Source: a virus (lineage: Duplodnaviria > Caudoviricetes). Taken from it: a stretch of DNA of 52,277 nucleotides. Every line of letters begins with the position of its first letter. The stretch's first letter is position 1. The position numbers and the translations under genes are program-made. Below the pieces are notes generated by a model. It ran no database searches. It was not told where the DNA came from and saw only the letters and a list, made by a program, of their open reading frames with translations. Location: the IMG/VR virus record IMGVR_UViG_3300020172_002521, positions 1 through 52,277 of that record; one strand, written 5' to 3'. Of the stretch, positions 33,192 to 51,655 are shown piece after piece.

Positions 33192-33207
33192 GACCCGGAT
33201 TTACCGA

Positions 33208-36810: not shown

Positions 36811-36811
36811 A

Positions 36812-37666
36812 TTATTCTGCTGGTAAAAAATCTAACACGTTTTTAGTTGCACCATCAATAATAAAGCTCTGATATTTTTCTAAATTATTAACTACAGTGT
36901 TAGGGAAATAGTCATCAACTTCAACGTACTCGAATTGTTCGTTGTAGTTATTGGGATCAAGTCCTCGTTTGTTCTTTAACATTTCATCTAGGTTAAGATT
37001 TCCTAGGATATAATCGTTGTTAGTTTCGCGGTGTGCAAAACTTTGTATTTTATTTCGGACATGATTTTCATTACCGAAGTAAGAGAAGTGCCAACCTGCG
37101 TGTGGAATACTGCACTGAACTCCGTCATTGTAATCCCAAGGACGCTGCATTAGTCCTACACCCATGTTACGTATATCTTGTGGAGTTCTTAGGAATTTTT
37201 TTCTAACGCCTATAGCACCAATTAGTGTAGTATTAGGCTTGTGCATCATGTAGTTCAATTTAAAATAGAACAGGGGTATTCTAGTAGCCCACAATGAATG
37301 ATCTGACTCACGCATATATTCTAAAGCAGCATCTCGAACTAGTTCATCACAGTCAGAAACAATGATAACATCTTCATCTGTGGCATCAGCTAGACCTCTT
37401 GATAATGCGTTACGTTGAAAGTTTTCTGGAACCCAAGCGTTAGAGTCTGTGGGCATATCTTCTACTTTGATATGAATAATTTTATCAGCGTAGTCTTTGA
37501 ATCGATCCCAGTTCTGTTCTAATACGAATTCTTTAGGAGCACCTTGGTGTGTTGTATTGGCTTCTGCAATAACAAATTTATCTACATGGTTCCAGTGTTC
37601 TTGTAATCGTAATTCTAAAATGTCGAACTCATTATAGAATGTAAAGCAATCGTATATTTTTTTCAT
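36812..37666 (-). CDS. GT17-like glycosyltransferase (beta-1,4-GlcNAc transferase family)
   Basis: [43 protein letters not shown] and KIQSFAH; start moved to MKKIYD because the upstream part overlaps a tRNA. Confidence 0.85.
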
Positions 37667-37679
37667 AGTATCTTTAAGT

Positions 37680-37753
37680 TGGTGCCCCACGACAGAATCG
37701 AACTGCCATCACAGGATTACAAAACCAGTGTACTGCCATTGTACTAGTAGGGC
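37680..37753 (-). tRNA. tRNA-Thr(UGU)
   Basis: GCCCTAC/GTGGGGC acceptor, GTAC D-stem, TT-TGT-AA loop, GGCAG-TTCGATT-CTGTC T-arm, encoded CCA. Confidence 0.85.
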
Positions 37754-37775
37754 GGCATAATATTTAAGTACAGCT

Positions 37776-37805
37776 ATTATACGCATCGACAAAACTGAAA
37801 GTCAA
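37776..37805 (-). promoter_or_regulatory. sigma70-type promoter for tRNA-Thr and the glycosyltransferases
   Basis: TTGACT-N18-TATAAT. Confidence 0.65.
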
Positions 37806-38536
37806 CTCCAGGGACGCATGTGTAGCCAAGTCATTGTACTGGGTCTTGATTCGCAGCAGAGTAGAACTTTATCATAGTCACTAAGATCATCGATTATAAA
37901 GATATAAGGATTTTTGGCACCTTGACGAATTGATTCAACTTGATGGGTGTCTTTAAAACGTGCTATAAGTTTATCAGTTAAACCTTCACGGATACAGTCG
38001 TGGCTTTCAACAATCACTGAAGTTTTAGCCAGTTCTGGAATTTTTTCTAGGTCTAGGAAGTCTTCTTCGTAGCCTTCGCAGTCCATAAAAATAAATGGTC
38101 TGTTGTATTTGCTAAGATAAGACCTAAAGTTTTCAACACTACTGTCAGTACTGAATTGTATTTTGTTTACTTTATTAACCTGTGCATTTTCTCTGGCAAT
38201 ATCAATAGCAGGTTGTTGGACATCAACTAGTACAATCTGTGCATTAGTCCTCATACCAAACCCAATGCCGTAATAGCCTTCGGCACTGCCAATGTTTAGT
38301 ACAAGATCTGGTGCGTGTGCAATTTCGTATTCTATACTATCAAATAGTTCACACTCGTATAGACCTAGTAGTTTGCCTGCACTATCTCCGTCGCCCCAAC
38401 TCCATTTAGGTAAAATTTTCATTCCCTGGAATGGACCTTTGAAAACGTGACCTTTGGTTCTACTCAAAATTAAATTGGTAAGTTCTTCTCGTCTTTTCCA
38501 GGACCATGCTACGTAATTGTTAAATGCTTCGGACAT
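37802..38536 (-). CDS. SAM-dependent methyltransferase (FkbM-like)
   Basis: LGLYE, VLNIGSAEGYY, FMDCEGYE and IVESH. Confidence 0.75.
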   Translation of the reverse strand: MSEAFNNYVAWSWKRREELTNLILSRTKGHVFKGPFQGMKILPKWSWGDGDSAGKLLGLYECELFDSIEYEIAHAPDLVLNIGSAEGYYGIGFGMRTNAQIVLVDVQQPAIDIARENAQVNKVNKIQFSTDSSVENFRSYLSKYNRPFIFMDCEGYEEDFLDLEKIPELAKTSVIVESHDCIREGLTDKLIARFKDTHQVESIRQGAKNPYIFIIDDLSDYDKVLLCCESRPSTMTWLHMRPWS

Positions 38537-38551: not shown

Positions 38552-38653
38552 TGGTACGGTCGGTAGGCTTCGAACCTACAAAGGCGATGTCTAAGACGCT
38601 GCCCCATCCCCGACCCAATTGGGTGGGAGCTTTGCCACTTTGCTCACGACCGC
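38552..38653 (-). ncRNA. 102-nt tRNA-like RNA (Leu-like body, non-canonical anticodon and variable arms)
   Basis: GCGGTCG/CGACCGT acceptor plus ACCA; AGC-AAAGTGGCAAA-GCT D-arm; GTAGG-TTCGAAG-CCTAC T-arm; no standard anticodon arm. Confidence 0.75.
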
Positions 38654-38658
38654 ATATC

Positions 38659-38687
38659 ATTATAACAGGGTAATCGATAATTGTCAA
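38659..38687 (-). promoter_or_regulatory. consensus sigma70 promoter directly upstream of the tRNA-like RNA
   Basis: TTGACA-N17-TATAAT. Confidence 0.85.
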
Positions 38688-38726
38688 ATGTTTCTTTGTT
38701 TGTTATAAGTAGTTATTTAATCTAAG

Positions 38727-38978
38727 ATGACTATGACAAATATTGAACAAAGACTTATTGATATAATTAAAGATTACAGCAAGGTTGACTTTGATGTAGT
38801 TCCTGAAATGGATCTAATTTTTGATCTTGGATTTGACAGTCTTTCCTTTACTGAGTTAATAGTAGCATGTGAAGATGAATTTAAGATCGAAATAGAGATT
38901 GATAATTTATCAATGGAAGCATCTCGAACTATAAAAGGCCTAGCTACTGCTATTGAATCTTTACTTAGTTCGAATTAA
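38727..38978 (+). CDS. acyl carrier protein
   Basis: Acidic 83 aa; DLGFDSLSFTELIVACEDEF phosphopantetheine motif. Confidence 0.88.
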   Translation: MTMTNIEQRLIDIIKDYSKVDFDVVPEMDLIFDLGFDSLSFTELIVACEDEFKIEIEIDNLSMEASRTIKGLATAIESLLSSN

Positions 38979-39752
38979 TTTGATGATCCAAAAGGTGGGA
39001 TCTAACTCCCACCATTTTTTACTATGATTTGAATTCTTCGGGTCAGCATGATGATTGTTATGCCAAGACTCCCCAAACAATACAAACCAAAGCCAAGGTA
39101 AATTTACACTATTATCATTAGTGTTAACATTTCTGTATCCAATATTTTTACAATGTGTTAAGCTAGTCTGCAATGAAAAACTATGAAATGTAATATATGC
39201 AGGTAAAATAATAAAATATAACCAAAGATTAATATCAATTAAGGCAATAATTATATTGCTAGCCCATAATATTTTAATATAGTGATTATGTAAAAATAAA
39301 CAAAATCGATCTTGTAACAAATGAGCAACTGACGTCCAGGTAGCAGTGTAATCTATATTATCTAATTTAAACATCCAGCCTATATAACTATGAAAAAAAC
39401 CGTGATTAGGAGTATGTAAATCTTTATCTGTGTCTGTATACCTATGATGATACCCTCGATGTATCGCTGTCCAAAATAGTGGGCTACCTTGTGCGGCCAT
39501 TGCTCCGAACCATAACATAACAATTTTAATTGGTCCGGATACTTTAAATCCTCTATGACTAGCGTATCGATGGTAACCGGCTGATATTCCTAACATATCT
39601 ATAAAAATAAATCCTAATATTGTATAGATATACCAAAAGGGTATTGGATTCAAAAATAAATTAATAATAGAAAAAGTTCCTAATATTAATAATGGAAGAA
39701 CAGCACCCCATAAATTACTCTGAGATATAATATTTTTAAATATTTTTTTCAT
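38961..39752 (-). CDS. membrane fatty-acid desaturase (delta-9-like)
   Basis: His boxes GYHRYASH, HRGYHH and GESWHNNHH; DLHTP; WWELDP. Confidence 0.9.
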   Translation of the reverse strand: MKKIFKNIISQSNLWGAVLPLLILGTFSIINLFLNPIPFWYIYTILGFIFIDMLGISAGYHRYASHRGFKVSGPIKIVMLWFGAMAAQGSPLFWTAIHRGYHHRYTDTDKDLHTPNHGFFHSYIGWMFKLDNIDYTATWTSVAHLLQDRFCLFLHNHYIKILWASNIIIALIDINLWLYFIILPAYITFHSFSLQTSLTHCKNIGYRNVNTNDNSVNLPWLWFVLFGESWHNNHHADPKNSNHSKKWWELDPTFWIIKLIRTK

Positions 39753-40300
39753 TTGGTTCTCCAATCCTTTAATAATGATTGATTGCCGTGGTACATAATT
39801 TTTTGCCAACAAGTATCATCATTAATATTATTGCAGGTAAGATATAATTGACTATCGTATTCAAACAATATACCAATATGTTTCATTAAAATATCTTGTG
39901 CAAATTTTTGCCAATTATTATACTGCCTACTCATAAACACTAATTCAGCATTAAGATGCTGATAACAATAATTTAATTGAGTTTCTATCACGTTGCCAAA
40001 CATAATCATTCCATTACGTTTATCTAAAATAGACGAACGTTGATTTTTTATTTTCCAAAGTCTATTAGCTATCCTGAAAGTACTATTTGGCCAACATGGC
40101 CTCTGTAAAATACTACTACCAAAATACGGTTTATGATTCTGATCAAATGTTAATGAAATAGCAGAACATTCTTCAAATGATTCTTTTGAATAATTTTTAT
40201 ATAAATGGTGGGAAGTATCTTGATATTGTTCTTGTCTTAATTGCTCAAACAAGTCGTCTAATTCTTTATTAGTTCCGGCAGTCCAAATTTTAGTGTACAT
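39749..40300 (-). CDS. hypothetical protein, possible GNAT/LuxI-FeeM-like acyltransferase
   Basis: Coupled between acpS and the desaturase; only weak fold-level resemblance (LFEQLR...; FRIANRLW; LVFMSR). Confidence 0.45.
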   Translation of the reverse strand: MYTKIWTAGTNKELDDLFEQLRQEQYQDTSHHLYKNYSKESFEECSAISLTFDQNHKPYFGSSILQRPCWPNSTFRIANRLWKIKNQRSSILDKRNGMIMFGNVIETQLNYCYQHLNAELVFMSRQYNNWQKFAQDILMKHIGILFEYDSQLYLTCNNINDDTCWQKIMYHGNQSLLKDWRTK

Positions 40301-40670
40301 ATTCTAATACAGCAGACGAAATCAAATAGTCGCCGTCATGGCTGACGCTGATATGGCATCTAAGGTTCTGCGCCATCTTACCTAGATAATTTATAAAAGA
40401 TGTCTGTGGTTGCCCTAGTGGAGATTTAGAAATTTCTATATTTTTCCAAACAACTATGCCAGCAATCCCAGTACCATAGGATTTAGCCACTGATTCCTTT
40501 ATACTCCAATGTTTGGCTAAGAATATAAATTTTCTAGCATCAATGCAAGAATAGTATTCTGCTAGTTCGTTGGCAGTAAGAATTCGTTTGGCAAAACGTT
40601 CCAATCTATTTGAATTCATAGATTGAAATCTTCTAAGATCAACAATGTCTATACCCGTGCCTTTTATCAT
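40290..40670 (-). CDS. acpS: holo-ACP synthase (phosphopantetheinyl transferase)
   Basis: GTGIDIV, RILT..E, LAKHWSIKESVAKSYGTG and HISVSHDG. Confidence 0.92.
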   Translation of the reverse strand: MIKGTGIDIVDLRRFQSMNSNRLERFAKRILTANELAEYYSCIDARKFIFLAKHWSIKESVAKSYGTGIAGIVVWKNIEISKSPLGQPQTSFINYLGKMAQNLRCHISVSHDGDYLISSAVLEYVH

Positions 40671-40676
40671 ACTGTA

Positions 40677-40704
40677 ATTATACTTTTTTATTTTAGTCTG
40701 TCAA
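40677..40704 (-). promoter_or_regulatory. sigma70-type promoter; probably leaderless acpS transcript
   Basis: TTGACA-N16-TATAAT, 7 nt above the ATG. Confidence 0.65.
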
Positions 40705-40742
40705 GATCCTGGTAAATATGCATCGCACTTCAAGGACCCGAT

Positions 40743-41564
40743 ATGTTTTTAGGACACCGTACAGATTTAGAAAATGGACAGATAAAATCATTAGATATTT
40801 TAGACGGCAAAAAAGTTTTGCTCAATGACAACGGAAGTTATAAACTAGGTAGTAATATTTGCCCCCACCAAAATAGTAGAATTGTTTCTGGAACTGCTAC
40901 AGAACTACGATGCCAGTATCACGGTTGGTCGTGGAATAATGACGGCAGTCCTCGAGATTCTGGATCCAGTAAAATGTGTAATGAAGCAAGACTTCATATG
41001 AAACCTGTACACGAATATAAAGGATTACTGTTTGCTGATGATATTGATCTATCAGTGTTGGACGATATATCTTTTGAAGATTTAGAGTTAGATGAATTTA
41101 GAGTCAATAGTTTAAATGCAGATCCAAAAATTAGTATGGATATCTTTTTAGATGTCGATCATATTCCTGTAGTGCATAACGGCGTCTACGACCTATTAGG
41201 CATTGAAGGCGAAGCAAATGTATCTTGGGACTTTAGAGACTGGGGTAGTGTACAGACTGTTACAGACGAGAAGAATAATAAAATTGCCCTTTGGATAGCG
41301 GTGTATCCTTATACTATGATTGAATGGCAATTAGGAGCATTATTTGTCAGTCAATGCTTTGACGATAACAAAATAGCAGTTTGGAAATACAAAGATAAAA
41401 CAGACTCTGATGAAAATTATAAAGTTAATTCTGATATGTGGGAAACAGCATTTGCACAAGATGTCATGCAAGCGGAACAAATGGTTAGATTCCCTACAAC
41501 AATCTACTTGGAAGACGCAAAGAAACACTACAGAGAGTGGCTGACTAATGCAATTAGTAGATAA
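40743..41564 (+). CDS. Rieske non-heme iron oxygenase
   Basis: CPH...CQYHGW [2Fe-2S] motif; DVDHIPVVH...QD mononuclear iron ligands. Confidence 0.88.
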   Translation: MFLGHRTDLENGQIKSLDILDGKKVLLNDNGSYKLGSNICPHQNSRIVSGTATELRCQYHGWSWNNDGSPRDSGSSKMCNEARLHMKPVHEYKGLLFADDIDLSVLDDISFEDLELDEFRVNSLNADPKISMDIFLDVDHIPVVHNGVYDLLGIEGEANVSWDFRDWGSVQTVTDEKNNKIALWIAVYPYTMIEWQLGALFVSQCFDDNKIAVWKYKDKTDSDENYKVNSDMWETAFAQDVMQAEQMVRFPTTIYLEDAKKHYREWLTNAISR

Positions 41565-42447
41565 CAATTATCTTAGAAGTTGGGGCAATGGACCTACCTG
41601 GACTGTGGAGATTGATCCACCACGCAGACCTGTAAGAAGTTATTATGAAGAAACACTAATTGCCGCAGAGATGCTATGGGAACGTAAACAGGGCAAACTT
41701 CAACTCTGCTATAGCGGCGGGCTTGACAGCGAATATGTACTCAGCATACTTTTAAAATTTGGTATGACTGTAGAAGTAGTGATCATGCGTACACAATACA
41801 ACCATCATGAGACACAATATGCTTTTAAATTCTGTGAAGCTAAAAATATCACTCCTACAGTTGTAGATTTAGACTATGATAAATTTGTCGAGTCTGGTCA
41901 AATGTTATCCATTGCAGAATCAATTAAATGTGCAGCATATCAAATTCCCTGTAACATGTGGTTAGCTAGTCAACTCGACGGCACTGTAATAACAGGCAAT
42001 GATCCACCTCATTTAAAATTAAATCCCAAAGATAATTTATGGTATCTCGATGAAGAAGAAGTTATACATAGTCAGTTAACTTATTGGAAAAAAAATAGCC
42101 TAGAAGGAACACCATTTTTTCTAAGTTATACTCCAGAACAAATGTTAGCTTTTCTTATTGATCCTACAATTGAAAAATTAGCCAATCATGAGTTTCCTGG
42201 GAGGCTAGGAACTAATTCATCAAAGGTTCATGTGTTTAACAGAGGAACCGGATTTAATCTAGAACAACGAGTAAAGCAGCACGGCTACGAACATGTAGAA
42301 ACAAGTTCGATATTTCAACATCCAGATATGCAGACAGTTATGTCATACAAAAATAAATGGCTAGGAACGTCAGATCATCAATATCATAAAGTTGTAAAAA
42401 CTTTATCTTCCGGGTTGACTTCTACAGCAACAACATCTATAATGTAA
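41548..42447 (+). CDS. PP-loop (adenine nucleotide alpha-hydrolase-like) protein
   Basis: LCYSGGLDSE motif; VITG. Confidence 0.7.
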   Translation: MQLVDNNYLRSWGNGPTWTVEIDPPRRPVRSYYEETLIAAEMLWERKQGKLQLCYSGGLDSEYVLSILLKFGMTVEVVIMRTQYNHHETQYAFKFCEAKNITPTVVDLDYDKFVESGQMLSIAESIKCAAYQIPCNMWLASQLDGTVITGNDPPHLKLNPKDNLWYLDEEEVIHSQLTYWKKNSLEGTPFFLSYTPEQMLAFLIDPTIEKLANHEFPGRLGTNSSKVHVFNRGTGFNLEQRVKQHGYEHVETSSIFQHPDMQTVMSYKNKWLGTSDHQYHKVVKTLSSGLTSTATTSIM

Positions 42448-42449
42448 CT

Positions 42450-43010
42450 ATGGCAAAAAACTTTATATACTTAGATTGCCCAAATCAGGAAATTATAGCT
42501 AAAAAATCTTTAGAGTACCTTAGTACAACAAAATGGCTATCGACTGTTGCTCATTGGCGTGGACCAATTAACGGTAGCGAGTTAACACAGTTATTAGACA
42601 ATGTTCCTGAATTGGTCGAATGGCTCGATAGCCTACATCTGCAGCCTGCCCAATTTTGGATAATAGGATATTTTGCTACATCTAGCATACATCTCGATTC
42701 TGGTATTCCATATCCTAGAATAAATTTTCCTTTAATTAATACTGTAGGAACAGCCATAACAGAATTTTATGATATAAAGAATATGGAAAAAATTGAACAT
42801 AAAGATTGGGGAGTACCGTTTTGGTATTTAAAATATAATCCAGCCGATGCGGTAATGATCGATTCCTACGAATTAACGCAACCAGTTGTATTCAATCCAG
42901 ATATTCCACATCGAGTAAGGTTCGATACACCAATGTCTCCGGCAAATCCGAGATTGGCTTTCTCTATGTATTTTTATAATCCGCCATACCACATGCTAGG
43001 CCTAGAATGA
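42450..43010 (+). CDS. putative cupin/2OG-Fe(II) oxygenase-like protein
   Basis: IHLD...RINFP...PHRV...RLAFS pattern. Confidence 0.55.
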   Translation: MAKNFIYLDCPNQEIIAKKSLEYLSTTKWLSTVAHWRGPINGSELTQLLDNVPELVEWLDSLHLQPAQFWIIGYFATSSIHLDSGIPYPRINFPLINTVGTAITEFYDIKNMEKIEHKDWGVPFWYLKYNPADAVMIDSYELTQPVVFNPDIPHRVRFDTPMSPANPRLAFSMYFYNPPYHMLGLE

Positions 43011-43471
43011 AACCATTATCATCGCAAGATATTTTATCAATACTTCCACACCGTTATCCGTTTCTAATGATAGATCGAGTATTAGACTACGATGCAACAA
43101 CTATAACAGCGGTTAAAAACTTTACCATCAACGAACCCTATGTACAAGGACATTTTCCAGGTAACCACATTATGCCAGGAGTTATGATGGTTGAAGCCAT
43201 GGCACAGGCCAGTACTATTTTAGCATTCAAATATGTTGAGGACGTAATGCCTTCGGAAGATTTTTTCAAGTATATGGCCAAAGGTGCCGGAATACTATTT
43301 GTGGGTGCAGACCAGGTTAGATTTAAAAAGGTGGTATTACCCGGAGAGCAACTGATAATTTACTCTACGCTGACGAGAAATGCTAGAAATATTTTTGAGT
43401 TTGATGCTCGAATTGAAGTAGATGGAATAATTGTCACCGAAGGCAAACTAAAAGCACTCGGCGGAGTCTAA
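43007..43471 (+). CDS. fabZ: 3-hydroxyacyl-ACP dehydratase
   Basis: LPHRYPFLMIDRV; GHFPGNHIMPGVMMVEAMAQ; VRFKKVVLPG. Confidence 0.93.
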   Translation: MKPLSSQDILSILPHRYPFLMIDRVLDYDATTITAVKNFTINEPYVQGHFPGNHIMPGVMMVEAMAQASTILAFKYVEDVMPSEDFFKYMAKGAGILFVGADQVRFKKVVLPGEQLIIYSTLTRNARNIFEFDARIEVDGIIVTEGKLKALGGV

Positions 43472-43528
43472 GTCCACGTCTGTTATCAGTAAGCTAACGT
43501 TTATTTAAATAATTATATAGGAGATACT

Positions 43529-43906
43529 ATGAGTACCGAAAATTGGACACCCCGTTCTGAAGAAGAAGTTGAGCGTAGATTTATTGAAATGATCAACGTT
43601 TATCTCAAACTAGAGTTAGAATACCCACTTCCTCCAGAGATGAATATTAAAGATTTGAAAATTGTTAATAATAACGAGATTCAAAATCTTCCACCAGAGC
43701 TGTTTGAATTAGAAAAGAAAAATCTTGAAATTGATAGCATCGACATTCTTGAACTAGTAATTCAAGTTGAAGAAGAATTTGGCGTGGTTATTGACGATCA
43801 AGAAATTCCAAAGTTACTAGCATGGAAAGACTTGATTGGATATATTACAGATAGTCAAGAACCACCAAAACAAAAAACATCACCATCGACTACACCTGCC
43901 CCATGA
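43529..43906 (+). CDS. acyl carrier protein with insertion
   Basis: LEIDSIDILELVIQVEEEFGVVIDD; AGGAG SD. Confidence 0.82.
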   Translation: MSTENWTPRSEEEVERRFIEMINVYLKLELEYPLPPEMNIKDLKIVNNNEIQNLPPELFELEKKNLEIDSIDILELVIQVEEEFGVVIDDQEIPKLLAWKDLIGYITDSQEPPKQKTSPSTTPAP

Positions 43907-45078
43907 AAGATATCTATATAGTCGACTATCGGGTGCATGATTCTCTTGGAAACAATGTAGCATCTAACTACGAAAATATGCCCTTGTCAAAAGGTCCGCA
44001 GACAATAACTAGATATAATATTAACGATTATCCTTACATTTTAAGCACTAAAGGATTCCAGGCCGAATATATGGAGAATGGCCACTTATCGTACAAGACA
44101 GCAGTAAACATTACCAACGAATATCTCGAGAACTATAATAATGATTTATTCAAGGATAGTGTAGTGAGTGTTGGATCTTTTGCAATTAACTCTGCGATAA
44201 GAGAAGATTTTTATAAGTCTATGGATGATCATAAAAATCGTTACAGTCCTAGTAGATTATTTTCTAACAATCACGACTTATTGTCTGCATTAATATCTGG
44301 AAAAACAAAATCAGAAAACATGAATGTTAGTGTAAACGCTGCTTGCTCTAGCAGTATGTTTAATCTACATTTTGCATCAATGTTAATACAAACTGGCCAG
44401 ACAAACTCTGCTCTTGTTGGTGCAATAGATCATTCATTAAATCCTACTCTGCAATATTATTGGCAGTCATCAAGTGCATTATCAAATGCAGGCGGCGGAA
44501 CATCAAAACCTTTTGATAAGAATCGAGACGGGTTTTTACAAGGCGAAGGCGGTACCATTTGGTTTATCTGTGATGAAGAAACACTGGTAAAATATAATCT
44601 TAAACCAAAGGCAAAATTAAGATCAATTGCCAGCGGTGCTAAATTGACTAGTATGACTGCTCATGATAGAACTTGTGAAAATCAGTTAAAGATTATTAAC
44701 CAAGCATTGAAGCAGGCTAACTTAACTCCAAAAGATATTGCATTTTTTAATGCACATGCTACTAGTACACTAGTAGGCGACGATATTGAATTAGATGTCT
44801 TTCAACGTGCATTTGAAGGTGTAGATATTCCTATTGTTGGGTTTAAAGGTTACATAGGGCATACTATGAGTGCCTGCGGGTTAATTGAAGCAGCCTACGG
44901 AATAGAAGCAGTTAAGAACGGATACTTACAACCAAACTTTTCTTTAGACAATCCCCTTAGTGATGATCCTAGACTAATTACTAAGAAGACTGATTTAAAA
45001 GGAAATATCTTTATGAAAGCAAGTTTTGGCTTTGGTGGTCGAACTTCTATTGCTATCATAGAGTCATTAGAAGGATAA
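43903..45078 (+). CDS. beta-ketoacyl-ACP synthase (FabF/FabB-like)
   Basis: AACSSS (Cys), PFDKNRDGF..GEG, NAHATST (His), KGYIGH (His) and SFGFGG. Confidence 0.9.
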   Translation: MKDIYIVDYRVHDSLGNNVASNYENMPLSKGPQTITRYNINDYPYILSTKGFQAEYMENGHLSYKTAVNITNEYLENYNNDLFKDSVVSVGSFAINSAIREDFYKSMDDHKNRYSPSRLFSNNHDLLSALISGKTKSENMNVSVNAACSSSMFNLHFASMLIQTGQTNSALVGAIDHSLNPTLQYYWQSSSALSNAGGGTSKPFDKNRDGFLQGEGGTIWFICDEETLVKYNLKPKAKLRSIASGAKLTSMTAHDRTCENQLKIINQALKQANLTPKDIAFFNAHATSTLVGDDIELDVFQRAFEGVDIPIVGFKGYIGHTMSACGLIEAAYGIEAVKNGYLQPNFSLDNPLSDDPRLITKKTDLKGNIFMKASFGFGGRTSIAIIESLEG

Positions 45079-45081
45079 AAA

Positions 45082-45906
45082 ATGCCAGATAAAAGAGTTG
45101 TAGAACTTGTTAGGAATACAGTTGGCAGAAATAGCTGGGCCAACGAGCAAAGGACGGCTTATCAACATTTTGATCCTCAATACAATTTTCCAGATTGGTA
45201 CCTTAAAGAAATACATAGGATGAATAAAAAATATCGTCCTATCCGATGGATTCCTTTAGATGTTCCAAAATTTGAAATTGACATGGCAGAATTTATGGAC
45301 ATTTGGGATCGAGAAAATATTGATATACTTAGGACAGGTACTGATGCAGCAGAACCGTGGCCAAAGGAAGCCCATCCATTAGGCAAGGCCAGTAATTGGT
45401 ATAACCCACAATTTAAGGGACTTGATTTTTATACCTATAATAAAGATAATTTCCTAGAAACAAAATGTATGGGCTGGTCAGCGAAATTATACGAACATCC
45501 GTTGTTCACACCTATTATTGAACAAATTAAAGATACTCTTCCTTTCCAAATAGTTAGCCATTTGTATATATGGGAAAGTGTACGTGAAGTTTATCCACAT
45601 CGAGATGACGATTATTTTTGGGATATGCCAACTATGTTTCGTATTATGCTCAATGATGAAAACACACAACCGACATTATATGTTTGCGATGTAGATCACG
45701 GAGATCTACATTATATTGATCCTCCTCCCGAGACTAATACATTTGCATGGTCAAACGGTTCTCAGATTCACGGTAGTGATTTTCACGGAAAGAGAAAACA
45801 AATAATATGTATCAATGGAGTTTTCCATCCTAAAAAATACGAAGAATTAATGGATCGGAGTATTGAGAAATATCAAAACAAACTCAATTACAAATTAGAA
45901 ATGTAA
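45082..45906 (+). CDS. putative 2OG-Fe(II)/cupin oxygenase-like protein
   Basis: VYPHRD...FRIML...FAWSNG..IHGS..K pattern. Confidence 0.5.
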   Translation: MPDKRVVELVRNTVGRNSWANEQRTAYQHFDPQYNFPDWYLKEIHRMNKKYRPIRWIPLDVPKFEIDMAEFMDIWDRENIDILRTGTDAAEPWPKEAHPLGKASNWYNPQFKGLDFYTYNKDNFLETKCMGWSAKLYEHPLFTPIIEQIKDTLPFQIVSHLYIWESVREVYPHRDDDYFWDMPTMFRIMLNDENTQPTLYVCDVDHGDLHYIDPPPETNTFAWSNGSQIHGSDFHGKRKQIICINGVFHPKKYEELMDRSIEKYQNKLNYKLEM

Positions 45907-46239
45907 AAATTGATCAGTGTCGACAAACTGAATTTTAACTCCAGTTTCTTTACTTAATGATTGAATCATTTCCCATAAATTTACAGTCTGTAGATCGGTT
46001 GCATATACATCAAAATTTTCTTTACTGTCAAATACAACCTGACTGATAATTTTTGCAGTATTTTTATATTCAATTAATGTATGAGAGTTGTATAAAAATC
46101 CTGGCCGTTCGGCTAGTTGAGATCTAATTGTGGCATACATAGGATTATGATACAAAGCATCGGCCCAAGCTCTCAATTTTGGACCAGGCCGTTGTTCTGT
46201 TTGATCAACAATAGTAGTAGTAGATACCCTTGCGTACAT
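45895..46239 (-). CDS. hypothetical protein (possible dimeric alpha+beta barrel)
   Basis: RPGFL...VVFDSKENFDVY; AAGGA SD before MYARV. Confidence 0.5.
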   Translation of the reverse strand: MYARVSTTTIVDQTEQRPGPKLRAWADALYHNPMYATIRSQLAERPGFLYNSHTLIEYKNTAKIISQVVFDSKENFDVYATDLQTVNLWEMIQSLSKETGVKIQFVDTDQFLHF

Positions 46240-46313
46240 TTTAAATTCCTTTGTTTCAGATATTTTATTTACTATTAACAAAAACGATAATTACTAAAAA
46301 AGGACGGCATACA

Positions 46314-46652
46314 ATGTATACCAGAAAATATCGATTAGTCTGTACAGAAGGACCTAAGATGAAAAGATTTAAAGTAGTAACTACACAAAATCTTTCATTC
46401 AGTCAAATGATGAGGAGATATAACATCCCTACATCCGGACTGGTTAATGTAGTCGACGACCACTTTGATGACGAACGTTGGGAAATTACTTCAGAGTGGG
46501 AAAGTAAAGAAGCATTTGAAAAATCACAACAGCATCCTTATAGAAAAATGTTTTGGACACGCTTTGAATTAGAGTGTCACCGACACGGTATTAGATTTTT
46601 TATTACTGATGGTGATACCGGCGAGGAGACTGAACCATTCTCATTCGACTAA
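46314..46652 (+). CDS. ABM-like (dimeric alpha+beta barrel) protein
   Basis: ITSEWESKEAFEKS motif typical of ABM domains; AAGGA SD. Confidence 0.5.
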   Translation: MYTRKYRLVCTEGPKMKRFKVVTTQNLSFSQMMRRYNIPTSGLVNVVDDHFDDERWEITSEWESKEAFEKSQQHPYRKMFWTRFELECHRHGIRFFITDGDTGEETEPFSFD

Positions 46653-47243
46653 TACTCCCATTCGTATAGATATCGGAATAGGCCATGTACGATCAGTTAA
46701 TAATTTTTGTTGGTATTCGTATTTTGGTTCTTCTCCGGGAGAGAGATTACAATCCGTTGTAAATCGATATCTTGAAACTCTATAACCTTGTCTGCCCATC
46801 CATGCAAATAATCTTTCCCCAAAACCAGCAGATTTTAATGTATTATCTTGTCGGTTTTCATAAACAACAAAAAATCTACTAAGTTTCCTATTAATTTCCA
46901 TTTCGTCAAATAACATTTGATCCCACTGCCTAAACGCTTTAGCACCTTCAACAGTGTACATTTTGTCATGATGACCGTCACTGATCCAATATCCCCAGGA
47001 CCAGCTAGGAGATCCCGAAAACTCTTTGCAAATTAGAGCTCCAAATAATTTTCCGTTGACAAATATTCCAGGAACATAATATAACGGATCTTTAAAATAA
47101 TTTGGAATAATTTTTTCCATTTCATTATTAATAGTATATTTTAGTTGATCATCTGTGTAACCGTTAAATGTATATGGTCGAGACTTCATTAACTGTAATA
47201 ATTGTTCGCAATCGTTTATATTAAGAGTTCTATTTTCTATCAT
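46641..47243 (-). CDS. hypothetical protein (possible GNAT-like fold)
   Basis: Begins MIENRTLNINDCEQLLQL; GIFVNGKLFG. Confidence 0.45.
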   Translation of the reverse strand: MIENRTLNINDCEQLLQLMKSRPYTFNGYTDDQLKYTINNEMEKIIPNYFKDPLYYVPGIFVNGKLFGALICKEFSGSPSWSWGYWISDGHHDKMYTVEGAKAFRQWDQMLFDEMEINRKLSRFFVVYENRQDNTLKSAGFGERLFAWMGRQGYRVSRYRFTTDCNLSPGEEPKYEYQQKLLTDRTWPIPISIRMGVLVE

Positions 47244-47294
47244 AAATCTATTTACATATTTTCTAGGTTTATAAATATTAAAAAGGATTGTATC

Positions 47295-47657
47295 ATGAAA
47301 AAAATAATTATGACATTTGAAATGAAAAATCAAGAAGTGCTTGGAATTATGTATAATTCAGTTGACGTACACGCATTAGATACTGAATGTTTATCCGAAA
47401 TTGAAACTGAGTATTATGCTACACAAGACTATCATCGATTCGAAGGACATTGGTTTTTTGAAGATGATGCAGCATACGAGACTTGGTACGAACAACACGG
47501 AGCACTTAGAGACGAGCATCTTGCATCTCTTTTGGAATACCTTGAAGTAAACGAAGTAACTGTGAAAACTTATTCTGAGATTGAAAATTCTCGTATGCCA
47601 GGTGCATTACCATTCGATCAGTACGTTGGACTTCCTAATTTAATGCGAATGAGATGA
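47295..47657 (+). CDS. acidic hypothetical protein (possible alpha+beta barrel)
   Basis: AAGGA SD; HWFFEDDAAYETW. Confidence 0.55.
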   Translation: MKKIIMTFEMKNQEVLGIMYNSVDVHALDTECLSEIETEYYATQDYHRFEGHWFFEDDAAYETWYEQHGALRDEHLASLLEYLEVNEVTVKTYSEIENSRMPGALPFDQYVGLPNLMRMR

Positions 47658-48850
47658 TATTAGTAACTGATGATTTTTCTGAATCTTGGCAGAAAGAAAA
47701 AATAAATCAGAATTTTTATATTGTATACAATTTAGCTAGAACTGAAGTTCCTAGAACTGCATATAATATCAGCGATGTAATCTATCTATATTCGTTGTTA
47801 TTGAAAGAACCAGGTATTGTTAATATCGAATACCACGAGTCTAACGATAAACTATTTCAAGAAATACGAGTTATATGGTGGAATAAAAAATATTACCAAG
47901 ACTGGGCCAACACTCATAGTGATCAATATAAAAACTTAACAGATTATTTTGATCAATATAAAATACAACATAACATTGAATATGAACGTATTACTTCTGA
48001 TGAAGGATATGTTAGTGAGTTTCCTTATATCGAATATCCTAAAAAGAACGAGTTAGTTAGTTGGACGTTAATTGATTTTTATAAAGAGTATGTAATAAAA
48101 AATATTATTCCTTTAGGCGTATATAGGGGCGTGTATTTAGGTAACGGTGATTTTGACGATCCTAAAAAGCAGCCGGGAACTCTCTCAGGAGCTAGATTCA
48201 TGAAAGAAAGAACTAGCAGTATAGTGCGGAATCCAGAGAACAGAAATAAAAATATAAAAAACTTTCCCTGCAAGGCCCTGTCATACACGATCGATCATGC
48301 TGTTCAAGTAGCGATGTATGATGCTCCTATAGTTTATAAAAGATTTAGTAAACTTGTAACTGATGTAGAAAAATTTGCAGAAACATATATATCAGAGTGT
48401 ACTCAGTCTGCGGTTAATTTTGGCCACAGCTCATTAGGATCACAAATACTTACACATACACACCAGTTATCTAATGATAAAAGACTAACATTAACAATAG
48501 CAGTTAGACTCACATTTCACGATAAACCTGTAACATATAAATTTTGGAATCCTATTGACGATCTTGATCCAAATTTAGACAAATATTACGGATCGTCTGA
48601 TCTTGTAGCAGAGTACATAGACAATCAAACACCAATAGAAATACAATCAGAATATCGATCGAGTGTGTTGGTGTTTAACGGAAGTTATACCCCACATACT
48701 GTAGAATTTAATAATGATATCTATATGTACTTTGCCTACGATAATGTAGTATTCAAGCCTGATGCTTTAGAAAAGATAAAGCAACAAAGCGAAAGGTCTG
48801 CTTTCACAGACCTCGAAGAAGAAAAACATCTATACTTCTTTAACTTTTAA
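47654..48850 (+). CDS. hypothetical protein; possible C-terminal cupin/oxygenase-like domain
   Basis: 398 aa; LTHTH...VLVFNGSYTPHTV. Confidence 0.55.
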   Translation: MILVTDDFSESWQKEKINQNFYIVYNLARTEVPRTAYNISDVIYLYSLLLKEPGIVNIEYHESNDKLFQEIRVIWWNKKYYQDWANTHSDQYKNLTDYFDQYKIQHNIEYERITSDEGYVSEFPYIEYPKKNELVSWTLIDFYKEYVIKNIIPLGVYRGVYLGNGDFDDPKKQPGTLSGARFMKERTSSIVRNPENRNKNIKNFPCKALSYTIDHAVQVAMYDAPIVYKRFSKLVTDVEKFAETYISECTQSAVNFGHSSLGSQILTHTHQLSNDKRLTLTIAVRLTFHDKPVTYKFWNPIDDLDPNLDKYYGSSDLVAEYIDNQTPIEIQSEYRSSVLVFNGSYTPHTVEFNNDIYMYFAYDNVVFKPDALEKIKQQSERSAFTDLEEEKHLYFFNF

Positions 48851-49017
48851 TCGTTGTCTTTTGGACGTTTTTCTTTATGGCGGACATTTCCAAACAACTC
48901 TGCCTGGATCATAATACGTTTTTGAATGCCTCTTTGTTGAGGATCGACAATAGTAGCCAATTCTCTCTTAATATTTTTACTCATTTTGTAATTAGGTCCT
49001 GGTTTGATATATGACAT
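48847..49017 (-). CDS. small basic hypothetical protein
   Basis: Hand-translated 56-aa ORF MSYIKPGPNYKMSKNIKR...; AAGGA SD. Confidence 0.55.
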   Translation of the reverse strand: MSYIKPGPNYKMSKNIKRELATIVDPQQRGIQKRIMIQAELFGNVRHKEKRPKDND

Positions 49018-49037
49018 TATTTTTCCTTTTATTAAAT

Positions 49038-49112
49038 TGGTCCGGCGTAGAGGAATCGAACCTCTATTGACGGCTTAGAAGGCCGCTGTATTATCCGTTA
49101 TACTAACGCCAG
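49038..49112 (-). tRNA. tRNA-Arg(UCU)
   Basis: CTGGCGT/ACGCCGG acceptor; GCGGC-CTTCTAA-GCCGT anticodon arm; CCA encoded. Confidence 0.93.
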
Positions 49113-49120
49113 TTATATAT

Positions 49121-49149
49121 ATTATACTTGAGATTCCTATTTATTGCAA
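49121..49149 (-). promoter_or_regulatory. sigma70-type promoter for tRNA-Arg
   Basis: TTGCAA-N17-TATAAT. Confidence 0.7.
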
Positions 49150-49161
49150 GATATTTTAGTC

Positions 49162-49189
49162 AAAAAAATAGCACCCGGAGGTGCTATTT
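49162..49189 (-). terminator. intrinsic terminator
   Basis: AAATAGCACC-TCCG-GGTGCTATTT followed by a T run, after the vWA gene. Confidence 0.85.
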
Positions 49190-49202
49190 AAAACTCTCGT
49201 TT

Positions 49203-50612
49203 TTAGATATCGTAGCGTGGGACCATTATAGTCTTAAGCATGATGCCTTCTGGAGTGAACTGATCCAAATCAGCGGCTAGCAAGCTAGTCATGATTGATG
49301 GACTAAATCCACTTACCAATGCGGCACCACTCTTGTCAGCGGCCACAGGCACATTGTCTGAACTGTTTAGGTTCCAGAAAACAATCTGTGGCATGTTGTA
49401 GCCAGCGGCTTCGAACTTACGTCCGATCATTTCCATTGCGTTATCGTCGAAACGGGCGCATTGGTCAAACTGCATGTCTGACAAGATCAACAACATCTTT
49501 GGCATGTCGCTTTCTGGGACTGATCCCTTAACTGCAACGTCTAGGATTTTACTCATAGCCGCATGTAAGTTAGTGCTCATTTCCCAGTTGCTCTTAGACA
49601 TTTGGGTTACCTTGTCAACAATGTTACCCTTTAGAGTAACAAGTTCTGGCTTGCTAGAGAAAGTTAAGAATGTGTCCTTGAACACGCCCTTGTTCTTGTC
49701 TGCTAGATACAAGCCCAGGCTAACTGCTACGTCCAAACAACGAACGCCGGTGTTCTTACCTGCGGCGCAGGTCATAGAACCACTTACGTCAACTAGAGGT
49801 AGGATACTTGCGTCACCTACGTAGTTTGGCAGAGCGTCCCATTGTGCAATGACATGATCTGCTTCAGTCTTGTCAAACTTCACATATGAGTGTGCAATAC
49901 CCTTCAACACATCGTGTGGGTAAATTGCCGAAGCATTTACCTTAACAGTTGGGTCCTTGGCAACCAACTTAGCTACATACTCAGCGAACGCTGGGCTGTG
50001 ACGGTTGAATGCCTTCTTGTATTGGCGAGCCGCTACAGAAGGAACGTGTGAGAAGTTAATGTTGTCCCAGTCGTTGGCACACATTTGTGTTTCAACAACC
50101 TTGGTAAGACCAACTAAACTCTTACGGTATTGCTTTGGAGTCATTCCGAAGAATGTTCGGATTTCTGCGGCAATTGGTCCCTTGCGAGGAGTCCACTTTG
50201 CAGCCAATCCATTACTTTCACGAAGGGCATTACCCAACATTGTGTAAGCGGCTGACTTCAACTGCTTTGTTTCAAAGATAAAGATGTCGTCCCAACGTCC
50301 AACTTCTGGAACCTTGGCCAATAGACTCAAAGCTGCCTTTGGGTCACGCTTTTCTAGATGTACTAGAATATCGCGGAACAGTTGACGTTCACCTGCACCA
50401 CCACGGACATCACGTGCCCATTGTGCGATGCGTAGTGCTAGGTCAGAGTTTTCCACATAGGCGGCAGTGAAGTCGCCTGTGATGTCCTTACCACGGCTTG
50501 CACCGATCTTGTAGAACAGGTCAACTGTAGCCTTAGCTGTTGACTTACGAGCCTTCATGCCGTTGGCAGTACGGGCTTCTTGATTTGCTACTGCTGTTAC
50601 AAATGCGTTCAT
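49203..50612 (-). CDS. DUF2828-like Ro60/TROVE-related helical domain plus vWA protein
   Basis: ARDVRGGAGER, GRWDD and AAKWTPR; MIDAS VDVSGSM; STN, ILSDMQFD, IVFWN and VSGFSP. Confidence 0.8.
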   Translation of the reverse strand: MNAFVTAVANQEARTANGMKARKSTAKATVDLFYKIGASRGKDITGDFTAAYVENSDLALRIAQWARDVRGGAGERQLFRDILVHLEKRDPKAALSLLAKVPEVGRWDDIFIFETKQLKSAAYTMLGNALRESNGLAAKWTPRKGPIAAEIRTFFGMTPKQYRKSLVGLTKVVETQMCANDWDNINFSHVPSVAARQYKKAFNRHSPAFAEYVAKLVAKDPTVKVNASAIYPHDVLKGIAHSYVKFDKTEADHVIAQWDALPNYVGDASILPLVDVSGSMTCAAGKNTGVRCLDVAVSLGLYLADKNKGVFKDTFLTFSSKPELVTLKGNIVDKVTQMSKSNWEMSTNLHAAMSKILDVAVKGSVPESDMPKMLLILSDMQFDQCARFDDNAMEMIGRKFEAAGYNMPQIVFWNLNSSDNVPVAADKSGAALVSGFSPSIMTSLLAADLDQFTPEGIMLKTIMVPRYDI

Positions 50613-50625
50613 TTGTGTTTCCTTT

Positions 50626-50679
50626 CAGGTTATGTTTTTTTTCAGTTATGGTTGAAATTGTGTTGCTGTTAATAACCTA
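50626..50679 (-). ncRNA. structured RNA unit 1 (short)
   Basis: AGGTTAT-TA-ACAGCAA...ATAACCT-G closing stem. Confidence 0.55.
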
Positions 50680-50689
50680 TTAACTTTAA

Positions 50690-50856
50690 CAGGATCGTTG
50701 TTGACTGCTTTTATTTTACACAGGCCATCACTCTGTGCTCGTTGGGCTATTTCAATAGCTACCTTCAACGCTAGGCAGTTTTACGTGCTTTGCTCCAATA
50801 GGCTACCATAGTGATCCAACCTTCATAGTTGATTATGAATTGCTGTACCGATCCTA
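50690..50856 (-). ncRNA. structured RNA unit 2 (long, multibranch)
   Basis: AGGATCG-GT-ACAGCAA...CGATCCT-G closing stem; internal helices TTCATA/TATGAA, ACTGC/GCAGT, CGTTG/CAACG, GCTAT/ATAGC and CACAG/CTGTG. Confidence 0.6.
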
Positions 50857-50893
50857 AAACTTCTTAGCTTGCATTTCTGCTTGCTATGTATCT

Positions 50894-50922
50894 ATTGTAT
50901 AGTAAAAACTGCTGGCTGTCAA
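50894..50922 (-). promoter_or_regulatory. sigma70-type promoter driving the RNA units and vWA gene
   Basis: TTGACA-N17-TACAAT. Confidence 0.8.
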
Positions 50923-50951
50923 CAGTTTTTTGGACTTTTTTATCCAAATAT

Positions 50952-51542: not shown

Positions 51543-51580
51543 TGTATTCTTTATAATGACATATTATTTACTTTTTGTAA

Positions 51581-51655
51581 TGGCCGGGCTTGCAGGAATC
51601 GAACCCACACCGCTTGTTTCGAAGACAAGCATGATATCCATTTCACCAAAGCCCG
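51581..51655 (-). tRNA. tRNA-Arg(UCG)
   Basis: CGGGCTT/AAGCCCG acceptor; CTTGT-CTTCGAA-ACAAG anticodon arm; GCCA end. Confidence 0.9.

Follow-up and report, generated by a model that had tools for sequence, protein, structure and literature searches.

A conserved phage-borne gene set for acyl chains on carrier proteins in freshwater T4-like jumbo phages

Introduction

Phage auxiliary genes usually act singly, each encoding one enzyme for a step that limits a pathway of the host. The viral contig IMGVR_UViG_3300020172_002521 of IMG/VR (Duplodnaviria; Caudoviricetes), a 52,277-bp stretch of DNA that was analyzed as a whole and is referred to below as the window (completeness 9% by CheckV), carries at 38.6–49.1 kb a block of genes for carrier proteins, chain elongation, and oxidative tailoring. 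An earlier note on this DNA had described the block as a phage-encoded type II fatty-acid synthase (FAS)- or polyketide synthase (PKS)-like biosynthetic gene cluster. The locus raises the question of whether a phage can encode a pathway of its own on dedicated carriers, or whether such genes serve the metabolism of the host. The block is a genuine, conserved, phage-borne gene set for an acyl chain on carrier proteins, shared by a clade of T4-like jumbo phages from fresh water. The analysis described here established which genes are present, their catalytic motifs, two predicted folds, and a tight co-occurrence; together, these suggest that the phages do more than boost host metabolism and produce a lipid-like compound themselves.

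Results

Carrier proteins, ketosynthase, and dehydratase

Pfam and NCBIfam searches and motif alignments identify two acyl carrier proteins (ACP1 and ACP2), an AcpS-type holo-ACP synthase, a Cys-His-His β-ketoacyl-ACP synthase (KS), FabZ, a desaturase, a Rieske protein, and a PP-loop protein, all at the places given by the earlier note (Table 1). The Asp-Ser attachment motif is invariant in 15 of 15 aligned ACPs, which include both carriers. ACP2 contains an insertion of ~28 residues before helix II, and its DSIDILEL motif is invariant. A hairpin (38994–39013) lies 3′ of ACP1.

In the KS, Cys148, His285, His320, and Lys315 are invariant in all 18 aligned sequences, and the closest solved relatives in a profile search of the PDB are FabF enzymes (E 3.8e-42). 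The protein scores 147 bits with the NCBIfam fabF equivalog model, the cut-off of which is 494; this score and the insertion in ACP2 argue against a plain copy of the host FAS. By these sequence measures, the KS is classed as divergent FabF-like and FabZ as canonical. The PKS-like part of the earlier description is weak, as the block has a single FabF-like KS, no chain-length-factor partner, and a canonical FabZ; the phage-encoded, co-conserved block itself held up, as described below. Stop and start codons overlap at 41548/41564, 43007/43010, 43903/43906, and 47654/47657 of the window.

Co-conservation and gene order

Loci carrying a KS of the same clade were collected from viral (9) and metagenome (32) sequences. 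A sufficiently long KS match is present in 39 of these, and 30 are distinct at 98% KS nucleotide identity. Gene content was counted in the 17 distinct loci with a flank of at least 4.8 kb on the left side and at least 5.7 kb on the right side of the KS, and the remaining 13, being too short, were excluded. All 17 loci contain one KS match with ACP2 directly upstream of it, and all encode a GNAT-fold protein, which is the only non-FAS gene present in every locus. FabZ, a 2-oxoglutarate (2OG) oxygenase-like protein (one to three copies), the ABM-like protein E (ABM-E), and the desaturase (one to six copies) each occur in 16 loci. AcpS, the PP-loop protein, and ORF183, named for an open reading frame (ORF) of 183 residues, are found in 15 loci each, the related protein D (ABM-D) in 14, and ACP1 in 11.

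The order of these genes is also retained. FabZ lies directly upstream of ACP2 in all 16 loci that have FabZ, a desaturase gene is found no more than 150 bp from ACP1 in all 11 loci that have ACP1, and AcpS adjoins ORF183 in 13 of 15. The core genes stay together with KS identity down to 52%, while the flanks change: ClpP is found upstream in 7 of the 17 loci, a homologue of W51758 downstream in 9, and TROVE in 3, and the glycosyltransferase and the methyltransferase of the window are each found in a single locus. The earlier note had proposed a phage-encoded block that combines carrier activation, elongation, dehydration, desaturation or oxidation, and transfer, and had named co-conservation in relatives as a check. 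The block joins these functions to a transferase-fold protein, and its genes are co-conserved in 14–17 of the 17 loci, with the FabZ–ACP2–KS order kept in 16–17.

Around this core, the accessory genes are variable. ORF398 and ORF186 are each present in 9 loci and the Rieske protein in 8, and relatives add radical SAM enzymes (10 loci), ABC1/UbiB-type kinases (9 loci), short-chain dehydrogenases/reductases (SDRs; 4 loci), and a DUF3050 haem-oxygenase-like protein. The ABC1/UbiB-type atypical kinase (PF03109, E to 7.6e-74) is encoded inside the cluster in, for example, L003, L004, L006 (15153–16451), L007, and L008. The window has no ABC1 kinase gene; L003 also contains genes for the DUF3050 protein and a radical SAM enzyme.

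Close relatives differ in one segment. In the comparison of window positions 38727–40300 with positions 5027–6585 of the related locus L001, ACP1, the desaturase, and ORF183 are 48–51% identical. Identity between the two is 95% for the methyltransferase to the left and, to the right, 79% for AcpS and 90% for the PP-loop protein. These sequence comparisons indicate that the ACP1–desaturase–ORF183 segment is exchanged as a cassette between close relatives.

Table 1. Features of the block and its edges in the window
Feature	Position	Strand	Assignment and evidence
tRNA-like element, left edge	~38553–38653	−	Read from sequence, and fold
ACP1, 83 aa	38727–38978	+	Pfam PP-binding, E 1e-11; DSL serine conserved
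Membrane fatty-acid desaturase, Δ9 (SCD/DesC) family	38961–39752 (ORF open to 39812)	−	FA_desaturase, 1.3e-14
ORF183, conserved 183-aa protein between desaturase and AcpS	39749–40300	−	
AcpS-type holo-ACP synthase	40290–40670	−	Pfam ACPS, 3.3e-17; TIGR00516 acpS, 86.9 bits (cut-off 59.8)
Compact Rieske non-haem-iron oxygenase α-subunit-like protein (accessory)	40743–41564	+	Pfam Rieske, 2.1e-12
PP-loop ATP pyrophosphatase, widespread uncharacterised family	41548–42447	+	SGGxDSE motif
ORF186, 186-aa HxD...H protein, candidate small cupin/2OG oxygenase	42450–43010	+	Motif; paralogue of 50952–51542
FabZ, 3-hydroxyacyl-ACP dehydratase	43007–43471	+	FabA-like, 3.8e-28; NF000582 (NCBIfam FabZ equivalog), 151 bits (cut-off 113)
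ACP2, 125 aa	43529–43906	+	Pfam PP-binding, 20.8 bits, exactly at cut-off; NCBIfam ACP models to E 1.9e-9
FabF-like β-ketoacyl-ACP synthase (KS)	43903–45078	+	Pfam PF00109 and PF02801
274-aa 2OG/Fe(II)-oxygenase-fold protein	45082–45906	+	Predicted structure and structure searches
Protein D (ABM-D), ABM/Dabb-like, ~114 aa	45895–46239	−	hhalign to protein E
Protein E (ABM-E), ABM-like, 112 aa	46314–46652	+	PF03992 below threshold
200-aa GNAT-fold protein	46641–47243	−	Predicted structure and structure searches
Small accessory ORF, ~120 aa	47295–47657	+	Homologues in L001, L003, and L009; 3 of 17 loci
ORF398, 398-aa accessory protein	47654–48850	+	C-terminal HxH...H motif in alignment
tRNA-Arg(tct), right boundary	49038–49112	−	tRNA search

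Phage origin and continuity

The KS belongs to a separate lineage. The first 100 of 120 listed homologues are 50–94% identical to it and, except for fragments, 387–394 residues long, and the remaining ones are at most 33% identical. In a FastTree phylogeny of 130 rows, the 27 rows of the clade form one branch with 100% Shimodaira–Hasegawa-like support, apart from 67 cellular, 17 other viral, and 19 distant metagenome rows; the method is a fast one, and the tree has several long branches. A KS phylogeny, which the earlier note had suggested, returned a separate clade of viral and metagenome sequences. When cellular genomes were scanned with a pattern, one genome per species for 185,579 species, 166 relatives of the KS emerged, the best 80 of which are 25–34% identical. 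The clade itself consists of viral and metagenome contigs only, and the best cellular KS is at most 34% identical.

Relatives of the window place the cluster in phage genomes. In L006, the cluster is located at 224–245 kb, in the middle of a 364,554-bp record rated 100% complete that also encodes the T4 Gp23 capsid protein (E 8e-100) and a terminase; these are the genes by which the earlier note would have phage origin confirmed. The gene order of the window from the gene at 33924 to the TROVE gene recurs in two further records, L001 and L116, of which L116 comes from a contig of 179,875 bp. The stretch recurs in 20 public runs from 16 studies, 17 of which hold at least half of the sampled words; all 20 runs carry a freshwater, lake metagenome, or similar label, and three are possible sources of the window. 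The block is also covered by contigs of runs from four other studies, for example at 41370–49065 by one piece (7,696 nt, 35 differences) and at 38643–41704 by another. Among the pieces listed for runs X5, X6, X7, and X10, no contig bridges 38611–38643 or 37708–38016, and the contigs stop at tRNA genes. This is no evidence of a break, as 518 further pieces lie outside that list. The order kept in two other records and the coverage by contigs of other studies speak against a chimeric block, and the ceiling of 34% on identity to any cellular KS speaks against a recent bacterial insert. Both chimerism and a recent bacterial origin are therefore unlikely.

Deposited phages yield no close counterpart. 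The block has no match in a megablast search of 50,697 phage records, nor do the 2OG-like and PP-loop proteins in tblastn searches of deposited phage genomes. The KS has 29 tblastn matches in phage records, at 20–29% identity only, several of which look like bacterial DNA filed as phage. Other viral KS lineages, on contigs L010–L029, are 26–37% identical to the KS of the window. Four of these (L011, L019, L022, and L025) have a lone KS without ACP, FabZ, or AcpS that adjoins TauD-family dioxygenases or dCMP deaminase, with redoxin, GGACT, IMPDH, and sugar-nucleotide genes nearby.

Desaturase and oxygenases

The start of the desaturase is placed at 39752 on the basis of homologue lengths. The protein matches mouse SCD1 (4ymk; E 3e-17), and its HRYASH, HRGYHH, and HNNHH segments are in register with the three His boxes of that enzyme. 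A variant with six desaturase paralogues upstream of the KS is seen in two metagenome contigs, L125 and L124; tblastn finds no FabZ, PP-loop, or ABM-E gene in this variant. The Rieske protein matches the α-subunits of Rieske oxygenases in the PDB, with SxtDIOX/SxtT aligning over residues 10–150, and contains both a Rieske motif (CPH...CQYH) and a mononuclear iron motif (D-x2-H-x4-H). The Rieske gene is missing from L001 and L116.

About three oxygenase-like ORFs with HxD/H...H motifs had been listed in the earlier note. For one of these, the 274-residue protein next to the KS, an AF2 model built from a 39-row alignment adopts a double-stranded β-helix with a predicted local distance difference test (pLDDT) score of 91.9. 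All 50 VIA matches listed for this model are 2OG oxygenases (Z 9.1–6.7), as are the Foldseek matches (probability 1.0). From the sequence, the putative facial triad is H173-x-D175...H230, with H173 present in 39 of 39 family members and D175 and H230 in 29 of 39 each. The family comprises 61 full-length relatives, all from metagenomes or viruses, none of which carries a Pfam family; no relatives were found beyond the family itself, and a PDB profile search returned nothing significant.

The second ORF, ORF186, aligns with the protein encoded at 50952–51542 (BLASTP E 6e-7), including a shared HxD...PHxV motif; the latter protein has weak matches to PF05118 and TIGR04324. No relation between ORF186 and the 2OG-like family was detected by hhalign. 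For the third, ORF398, only the motif stood: an oxygenase reading has no profile support, hhalign shows no relation to the 2OG-like family, and an Atlas search gave weak leads.

GNAT-fold, PP-loop, and other proteins

The GNAT-like candidate of the earlier note is borne out by its predicted fold. With the start of the ORF set at 47243 because of homologue length, the AF2 model from a 34-row alignment has a pLDDT of 87.8 and a Foldseek probability of 1.0, and VIA superimposes it on 3fix with a Z score of 13.4 and a root-mean-square deviation of 2.8 over 151 residues. The family comprises 26 full-length relatives from metagenomes, none with a Pfam family, and no relatives beyond the family were found. 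Residues E74, E114, Y175, and Y177 are invariant in the alignment. The pantetheine/pyrophosphate-binding motif of the GNAT superfamily is Q/RxxGxG/A; in the cluster family, a loosely conserved “EG” is located between β4 and α3. The GNAT-like decarboxylases GphF and SxtA appear in the middle of the VIA list (Z 10.5–10.7) among ordinary acetyltransferases, and a priming-decarboxylase role and an acyl-transfer role are not separable by this comparison. Acyl-ACP-dependent GNATs of the LuxI, FeeM, and HlyC types do not appear among the 50 matches listed, which carries no weight either way. A predicted complex of the GNAT protein with ACP2 scores 0.47, compared with 0.38 when an unrelated protein replaces the GNAT protein, and was used neither for nor against binding.

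The SGGxDSE motif of the PP-loop protein (S56-G57-G58-x-D60-S61) is invariant in eight of eight homologues, and the N terminus resembles NAD synthetase (E 1.7e-3). A profile of the family finds 1562 representative proteins at E ≤1e-3, 869 of these at E ≤1e-10. In 4 of 25 scanned members, which were long members picked for the scan, a Pfam GNAT domain is fused to the PP-loop domain, a hint that the two activities cooperate. A QueC identity was considered and rejected, because the scores fall below the cut-offs (PF06508, 19.1 bits versus 22; TIGR00364, 18.7 versus 150) and only the N-terminal motif region matches. A QueD-like 6-pyruvoyl-tetrahydropterin synthase gene (20748–21254, minus strand; PHROG 2389, E 3.4e-35) is located 20 kb from the PP-loop gene, and neither QueC nor QueE was found above threshold among the scanned ORFs.

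Proteins D and E are paralogous (hhalign probability 78%, E 1.8e-5). For the ABM-like candidate of the earlier note, six of nine homologues of ABM-E match PF03992, all below threshold (best E 6.3e-4), and a PDB profile search with ABM-E gave nothing significant. ORF183 has no Pfam, PHROG, NCBIfam, or significant PDB match. In the searches made, the GNAT-like, 2OG-like, and ORF183 sequence families were seen only in the context of the cluster.

Functions that the phage does not encode

As the earlier note had stated, Pfam scans of the window ORFs and of related records reveal no FabD, FabG, FabI, or FabH. For FabD, PF00698 is missing from five of five related records, including one rated complete. 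The SDR families PF13561 and PF00106 are missing from G001–G003, and no SDR reductase is present in the cluster of the window, while 4 of the 17 relatives have one within the cluster. PF08541 (FabH) and PF00501 (acyl-AMP ligase) are missing from G000–G003, and no thioesterase family turned up in Pfam scans of the window ORFs and the loci of relatives. G001, a contig rated complete, contains exactly two PP-binding genes, both inside the cluster. The phage gene set is self-sufficient in carriers only, and because FabD, FabG, and FabI are not encoded, malonyl loading, keto-reduction, and any enoyl reduction would have to come from the host.

Edges and flanks of the block

The earlier note had placed the block between a tRNA-like gene and tRNA-Arg. 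Both are present. The tRNA-like element on the left has an acceptor stem, a T arm (GGTTCGAAGCC), a long variable arm, an encoded CCA, and an aberrant 4-nt “anticodon” loop; its fold is cloverleaf-like (−38.7 kcal/mol, z −1.9), and it is called by neither ARAGORN nor Rfam. The intergenic region that holds the element is 98% conserved in L001 and L116, and an exact 25-mer of the element matches, among 197 loci, only these two closest relatives. Contigs from other lake runs end inside the element, at 38611–38643. A σ70 promoter that agrees with the consensus at 12 of 12 positions (TTGACA-17-TATAAT) is found at 38687–38659 on the minus strand, ending 6 nt before the element, and a second such promoter at 40704–40677 precedes AcpS. 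Promoter-like sites across the window show no excess (58 versus 53.7 in shuffled sequence), so that only the two 12/12 sites are notable.

The flanks are phage-like and the strand layout breaks at the block, as had been noted from the sequence. To the left of 38.5 kb, all sizeable ORFs are on the minus strand, and the layout switches inside the 38.6–49.1-kb block, which has a G+C content of 0.33–0.36 compared with 0.36–0.47 in much of the window. PHROG matches to the left of the block include tail-fibre proteins (2456–17681), a ClpP-type protease (22537–23127), nucleotide-sugar epimerases, glycosyltransferases, and the QueD-like gene. Tail-fibre-like proteins of 1069, 611, 917, and 2087 residues with collagen-like repeat matches are encoded at 3632–17681 on the minus strand, and the local G+C content within this region reaches 0.46–0.47 at 2–8 kb. 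The 490-kb Agrobacterium phage Atu_ph07 has a ClpP with 70.8% identity to that of the window, and PA5oct-like jumbo phages encode proteins with ~29% identity to the one at 24245–25417. A stretch of ~9 kb (29400–38536) that separates the ClpP region from the cluster encodes a nucleotide-sugar epimerase, glycosyltransferases of the GT1 and GT17 types, and a methyltransferase. This stretch is common to L001 and L116 only; in other relatives, ClpP lies 4–8 kb from the cluster.

To the right of 49 kb are tRNA-Arg, a TROVE/DUF2828 protein, and two further tRNAs. The TROVE/DUF2828 (Ro-like) RNA-binding protein (49203–50612, minus strand) is encoded among the tRNAs at 49038, 51581, and 51679, and no Y-RNA-like family reaches the Rfam thresholds. 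Contigs from three lake runs connect 49066 to 51631 via 21 other letters, which may represent a variant, or a related phage, with one tRNA in place of the interval.

Discussion

A possible pathway

The gene content allows a pathway to be proposed. The phage AcpS would convert both phage ACPs to their holo forms and may be expressed early from a host-type promoter. ACP2 would carry the chain, which the Cys-His-His KS would extend by decarboxylative condensation with malonyl units, and FabZ would dehydrate the 3-hydroxy intermediate. Host FabD, FabG, and possibly FabI would be borrowed for malonyl loading, keto-reduction, and any enoyl reduction. ACP1 would present the chain to the Δ9-family membrane desaturase, of which there is one here and up to six in relatives, for O2-dependent desaturation, and soluble oxygenases (the 2OG/Fe protein beside the KS, the Rieske oxygenase, and the small ABM-like proteins) may tailor it further. 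The GNAT-fold protein could off-load the acyl group onto an amine acceptor, in place of a thioesterase, and the PP-loop ATPase might adenylate a carboxyl or carbonyl group of the acceptor or product for amide formation.

From the sequences and models, we consider it moderately probable that the block specifies a dedicated pathway, run with help from the host, whose acyl product is unsaturated or oxygenated and is off-loaded by the GNAT protein. Such a product would be expected to be either a fatty-acyl lipid of the amide type, unsaturated or oxygenated, or a target that carries the acyl group. The occurrence of up to six desaturases, of second 2OG copies, and of radical SAM (10 of 17 loci), ABC1 (9 of 17), and SDR (4 of 17) genes argues for a special product. 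More tentatively, the phage-specific KS, two ACPs, phosphopantetheinyl transferase, up to six desaturases, and 2OG and GNAT proteins may together produce an N-acyl lipid, either polyunsaturated or oxygenated, or else acylate a target of the phage or the host; the result would be a phage-made specialised metabolite and not the output of a boosted host pathway. Host malonyl and acyl pools may be diverted into an oxidised lipid, as the earlier note had envisaged, and signalling, membrane remodelling, and acylation of virion components or RNA would be conjectural uses of it.

Several observations weigh against a dedicated pathway. The phage set is incomplete alone, being without a malonyl transferase, a ketoreductase (other than the SDR of 4 of the 17 relatives), an enoyl reductase, a starter enzyme, and a thioesterase. 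The full-flank locus L125 is without FabZ, the PP-loop protein, and ABM-E by tblastn, and 2 of the 17 loci are without AcpS within reach. In 10 of the 39 aligned 2OG-like proteins, HxD...H is replaced by HxE...Y. The PP-loop family occurs widely beyond the cluster, so that its role need not be tied to lipids, and hhalign detects no sequence relation between the cluster GNAT and the GNAT domains fused to PP-loop relatives. By VIA, the cluster GNAT is closest in fold to ordinary N-acetyltransferases that act on small molecules or proteins. Shared descent may also explain part of the synteny, given ClpP upstream in 7 and W51758 downstream in 9 of the 17 loci.

Alternative explanations

The genes could instead be auxiliary metabolic genes that boost or retune host fatty-acid synthesis and membrane unsaturation, with no separate product; FabZ, KS, and ACP would then raise flux or act like FabN/FabO or FabA/FabB pairs, and the desaturases would fluidise membranes. 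A canonical FabZ above the NCBIfam cut-off fits this explanation, as does a desaturase of the Δ9 family, to which the cyanophage desaturases (vFADs) that desaturate C16 chains also belong (PMC5776448). The names fabF, fabG, fabZ, and desC are reported among viral auxiliary genes in viromes (PMC10653327), and, with no FabD, FabG, or FabI encoded, the chain must pass through host enzymes anyway. We nevertheless regard this explanation as unlikely, if the most serious competitor. The KS is at most 34% identical to cellular FabF and falls far short of the fabF cut-off (147 bits versus 494), and the phage brings its own AcpS and two carriers, one of which has an unusual insertion. The GNAT (17 of 17) and 2OG-like (16 of 17) proteins are universal partners from cluster-only families that membrane tuning does not require, and neither does it need six desaturase paralogues, radical SAM enzymes, or a Rieske oxygenase.

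The block might also be a hypervariable island of unrelated auxiliary genes that share no pathway and are adjacent through common descent of the phage backbone. Accessory content does vary widely (Rieske 8, ORF398 9, ABC1 9, and radical SAM 10 of 17 loci), the left segment has been exchanged between close relatives (~50% identity to L001 versus 79–95% for its neighbours), the backbone genes ClpP and W51758 often flank the cluster, and the PP-loop family is widespread elsewhere. These features are outweighed, in our judgement, by core genes that stay together down to 52% KS identity while the flanks change, by the fixed FabZ–ACP2–KS order (16–17 of 17 loci) and the placement of ACP1 beside a desaturase (11 of 11), by overlapping stop and start codons at four junctions of the window, and by GNAT and 2OG-like families that are found nowhere outside the cluster context; an island of this kind is less likely again than auxiliary genes for host lipids. 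The lower G+C content, the strand switch, and the tRNA or tRNA-like sequences at both edges would also fit an assembly chimera or bacterial DNA recently inserted into a phage contig. Such an origin is highly improbable in view of the order kept in L001 and L116 from the gene at 33924 to TROVE, the mid-contig cluster of the 364,554-bp record with T4 Gp23 and terminase, the contigs of other studies that cover 41370–49065 and 38643–41704, the recurrence in 20 runs of 16 studies, and the finding of no KS of the clade among the cellular genomes scanned, one for each of 185,579 species.

For the dedicated pathway, a module of at least 15 genes with its own carriers and activating enzyme, conserved to 52% KS identity, points to a product that the phage itself needs. 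The enzymology is familiar, the context is new, and three protein families (GNAT-like, 2OG-like, and ORF183) are seen only with the cluster and are clear targets for enzymology. Lake metagenomes from 16 studies contain these phages, so the product could play a part in freshwater infections. Should it prove to be a new lipid or acyl-amide, phages would count among the sources of carrier-protein-dependent natural products.

Comparison with known systems

Similar to type II FAS, the block contains discrete ACPs with a DS(L/I) serine, an AcpS-type phosphopantetheinyl transferase, a FabF-like Cys-His-His KS, and a canonical FabZ. It differs from type II FAS in the KS, which lies on its own branch and scores far below the fabF cut-off, in the insertion in ACP2, in the linkage of the genes to oxygenases, a GNAT protein, and a PP-loop enzyme, and in its phage location. 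The block would operate as an incomplete type II FAS coupled to tailoring enzymes, and it falls outside FAS proper in having no FabD, FabG, FabI, or FabH.

An aromatic type II PKS was rejected because the block has a single KS-fold ORF and no KSα/chain-length-factor pair. With regard to cyclases or aromatases, the ABM-like matches in six of nine homologues are sub-threshold, and the Pfam scan of the window found no cyclase family. The two ACPs are reminiscent of the type II PKS-like systems for cispentacin and aryl polyenes, and there are sub-threshold similarities to the cispentacin proteins (ACP1 to AmcB, 40.5 bits, cut-off 80; FabZ to AmcE, 68, cut-off 140; KS to AmcF, 123.5, cut-off 325) and to the aryl-polyene protein ApeP (FabZ to an ApeP-like model, 23.1 bits, cut-off 27). 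These matches are below the cut-offs and weaker than those to FAS models, and the block differs from both systems in having no second KS or chain-length factor.

Among phage genes, a comparison can be made with the cyanophage vFADs, DesC-like lipid desaturases that are described in PMC5776448 as single auxiliary genes acting on host glycerolipids and are shown to desaturate C16 chains. Both these and the desaturase of the block are phage-borne Δ9-family membrane desaturases with three His boxes; the latter differs in being paired with its own ACP (11 of 11 loci), in belonging to a module of at least 15 genes, and in occurring in up to six copies in relatives. The virome genes fabF, fabG, fabZ, and desC, listed as auxiliary metabolic genes in PMC10653327, share their enzyme names with genes of the block on viral sequences, whereas they are read- or gene-level annotations without cluster context. 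A description of a phage module with ACP, AcpS, KS, and FabZ was not found in searches of the full-text literature, with subscription journals and supplements outside coverage. To our knowledge, there is no phage precedent for a multi-gene lipid pathway.

Multi-gene lipid pathways do occur in giant viruses of eukaryotes, an example being sphingolipid synthesis in coccolithoviruses. The likeness is that of a large virus with a multi-gene lipid pathway, and the chemistry, the host domain, and the enzymes are different. An analogy in gene arrangement is provided by the JamA/B/C terminal-alkyne and polyyne clusters, in which a dedicated ACP is encoded beside membrane desaturases and several desaturase paralogues can be present in one cluster. 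The phage loci differ from these cassettes in the missing fatty acyl-AMP ligase or acyl-ACP synthetase (PF00501, G000–G003) and in that no thioesterase was found; they resemble them in the position of ACP1 beside a desaturase in 11 of 11 loci and in the one to six desaturase copies per locus.

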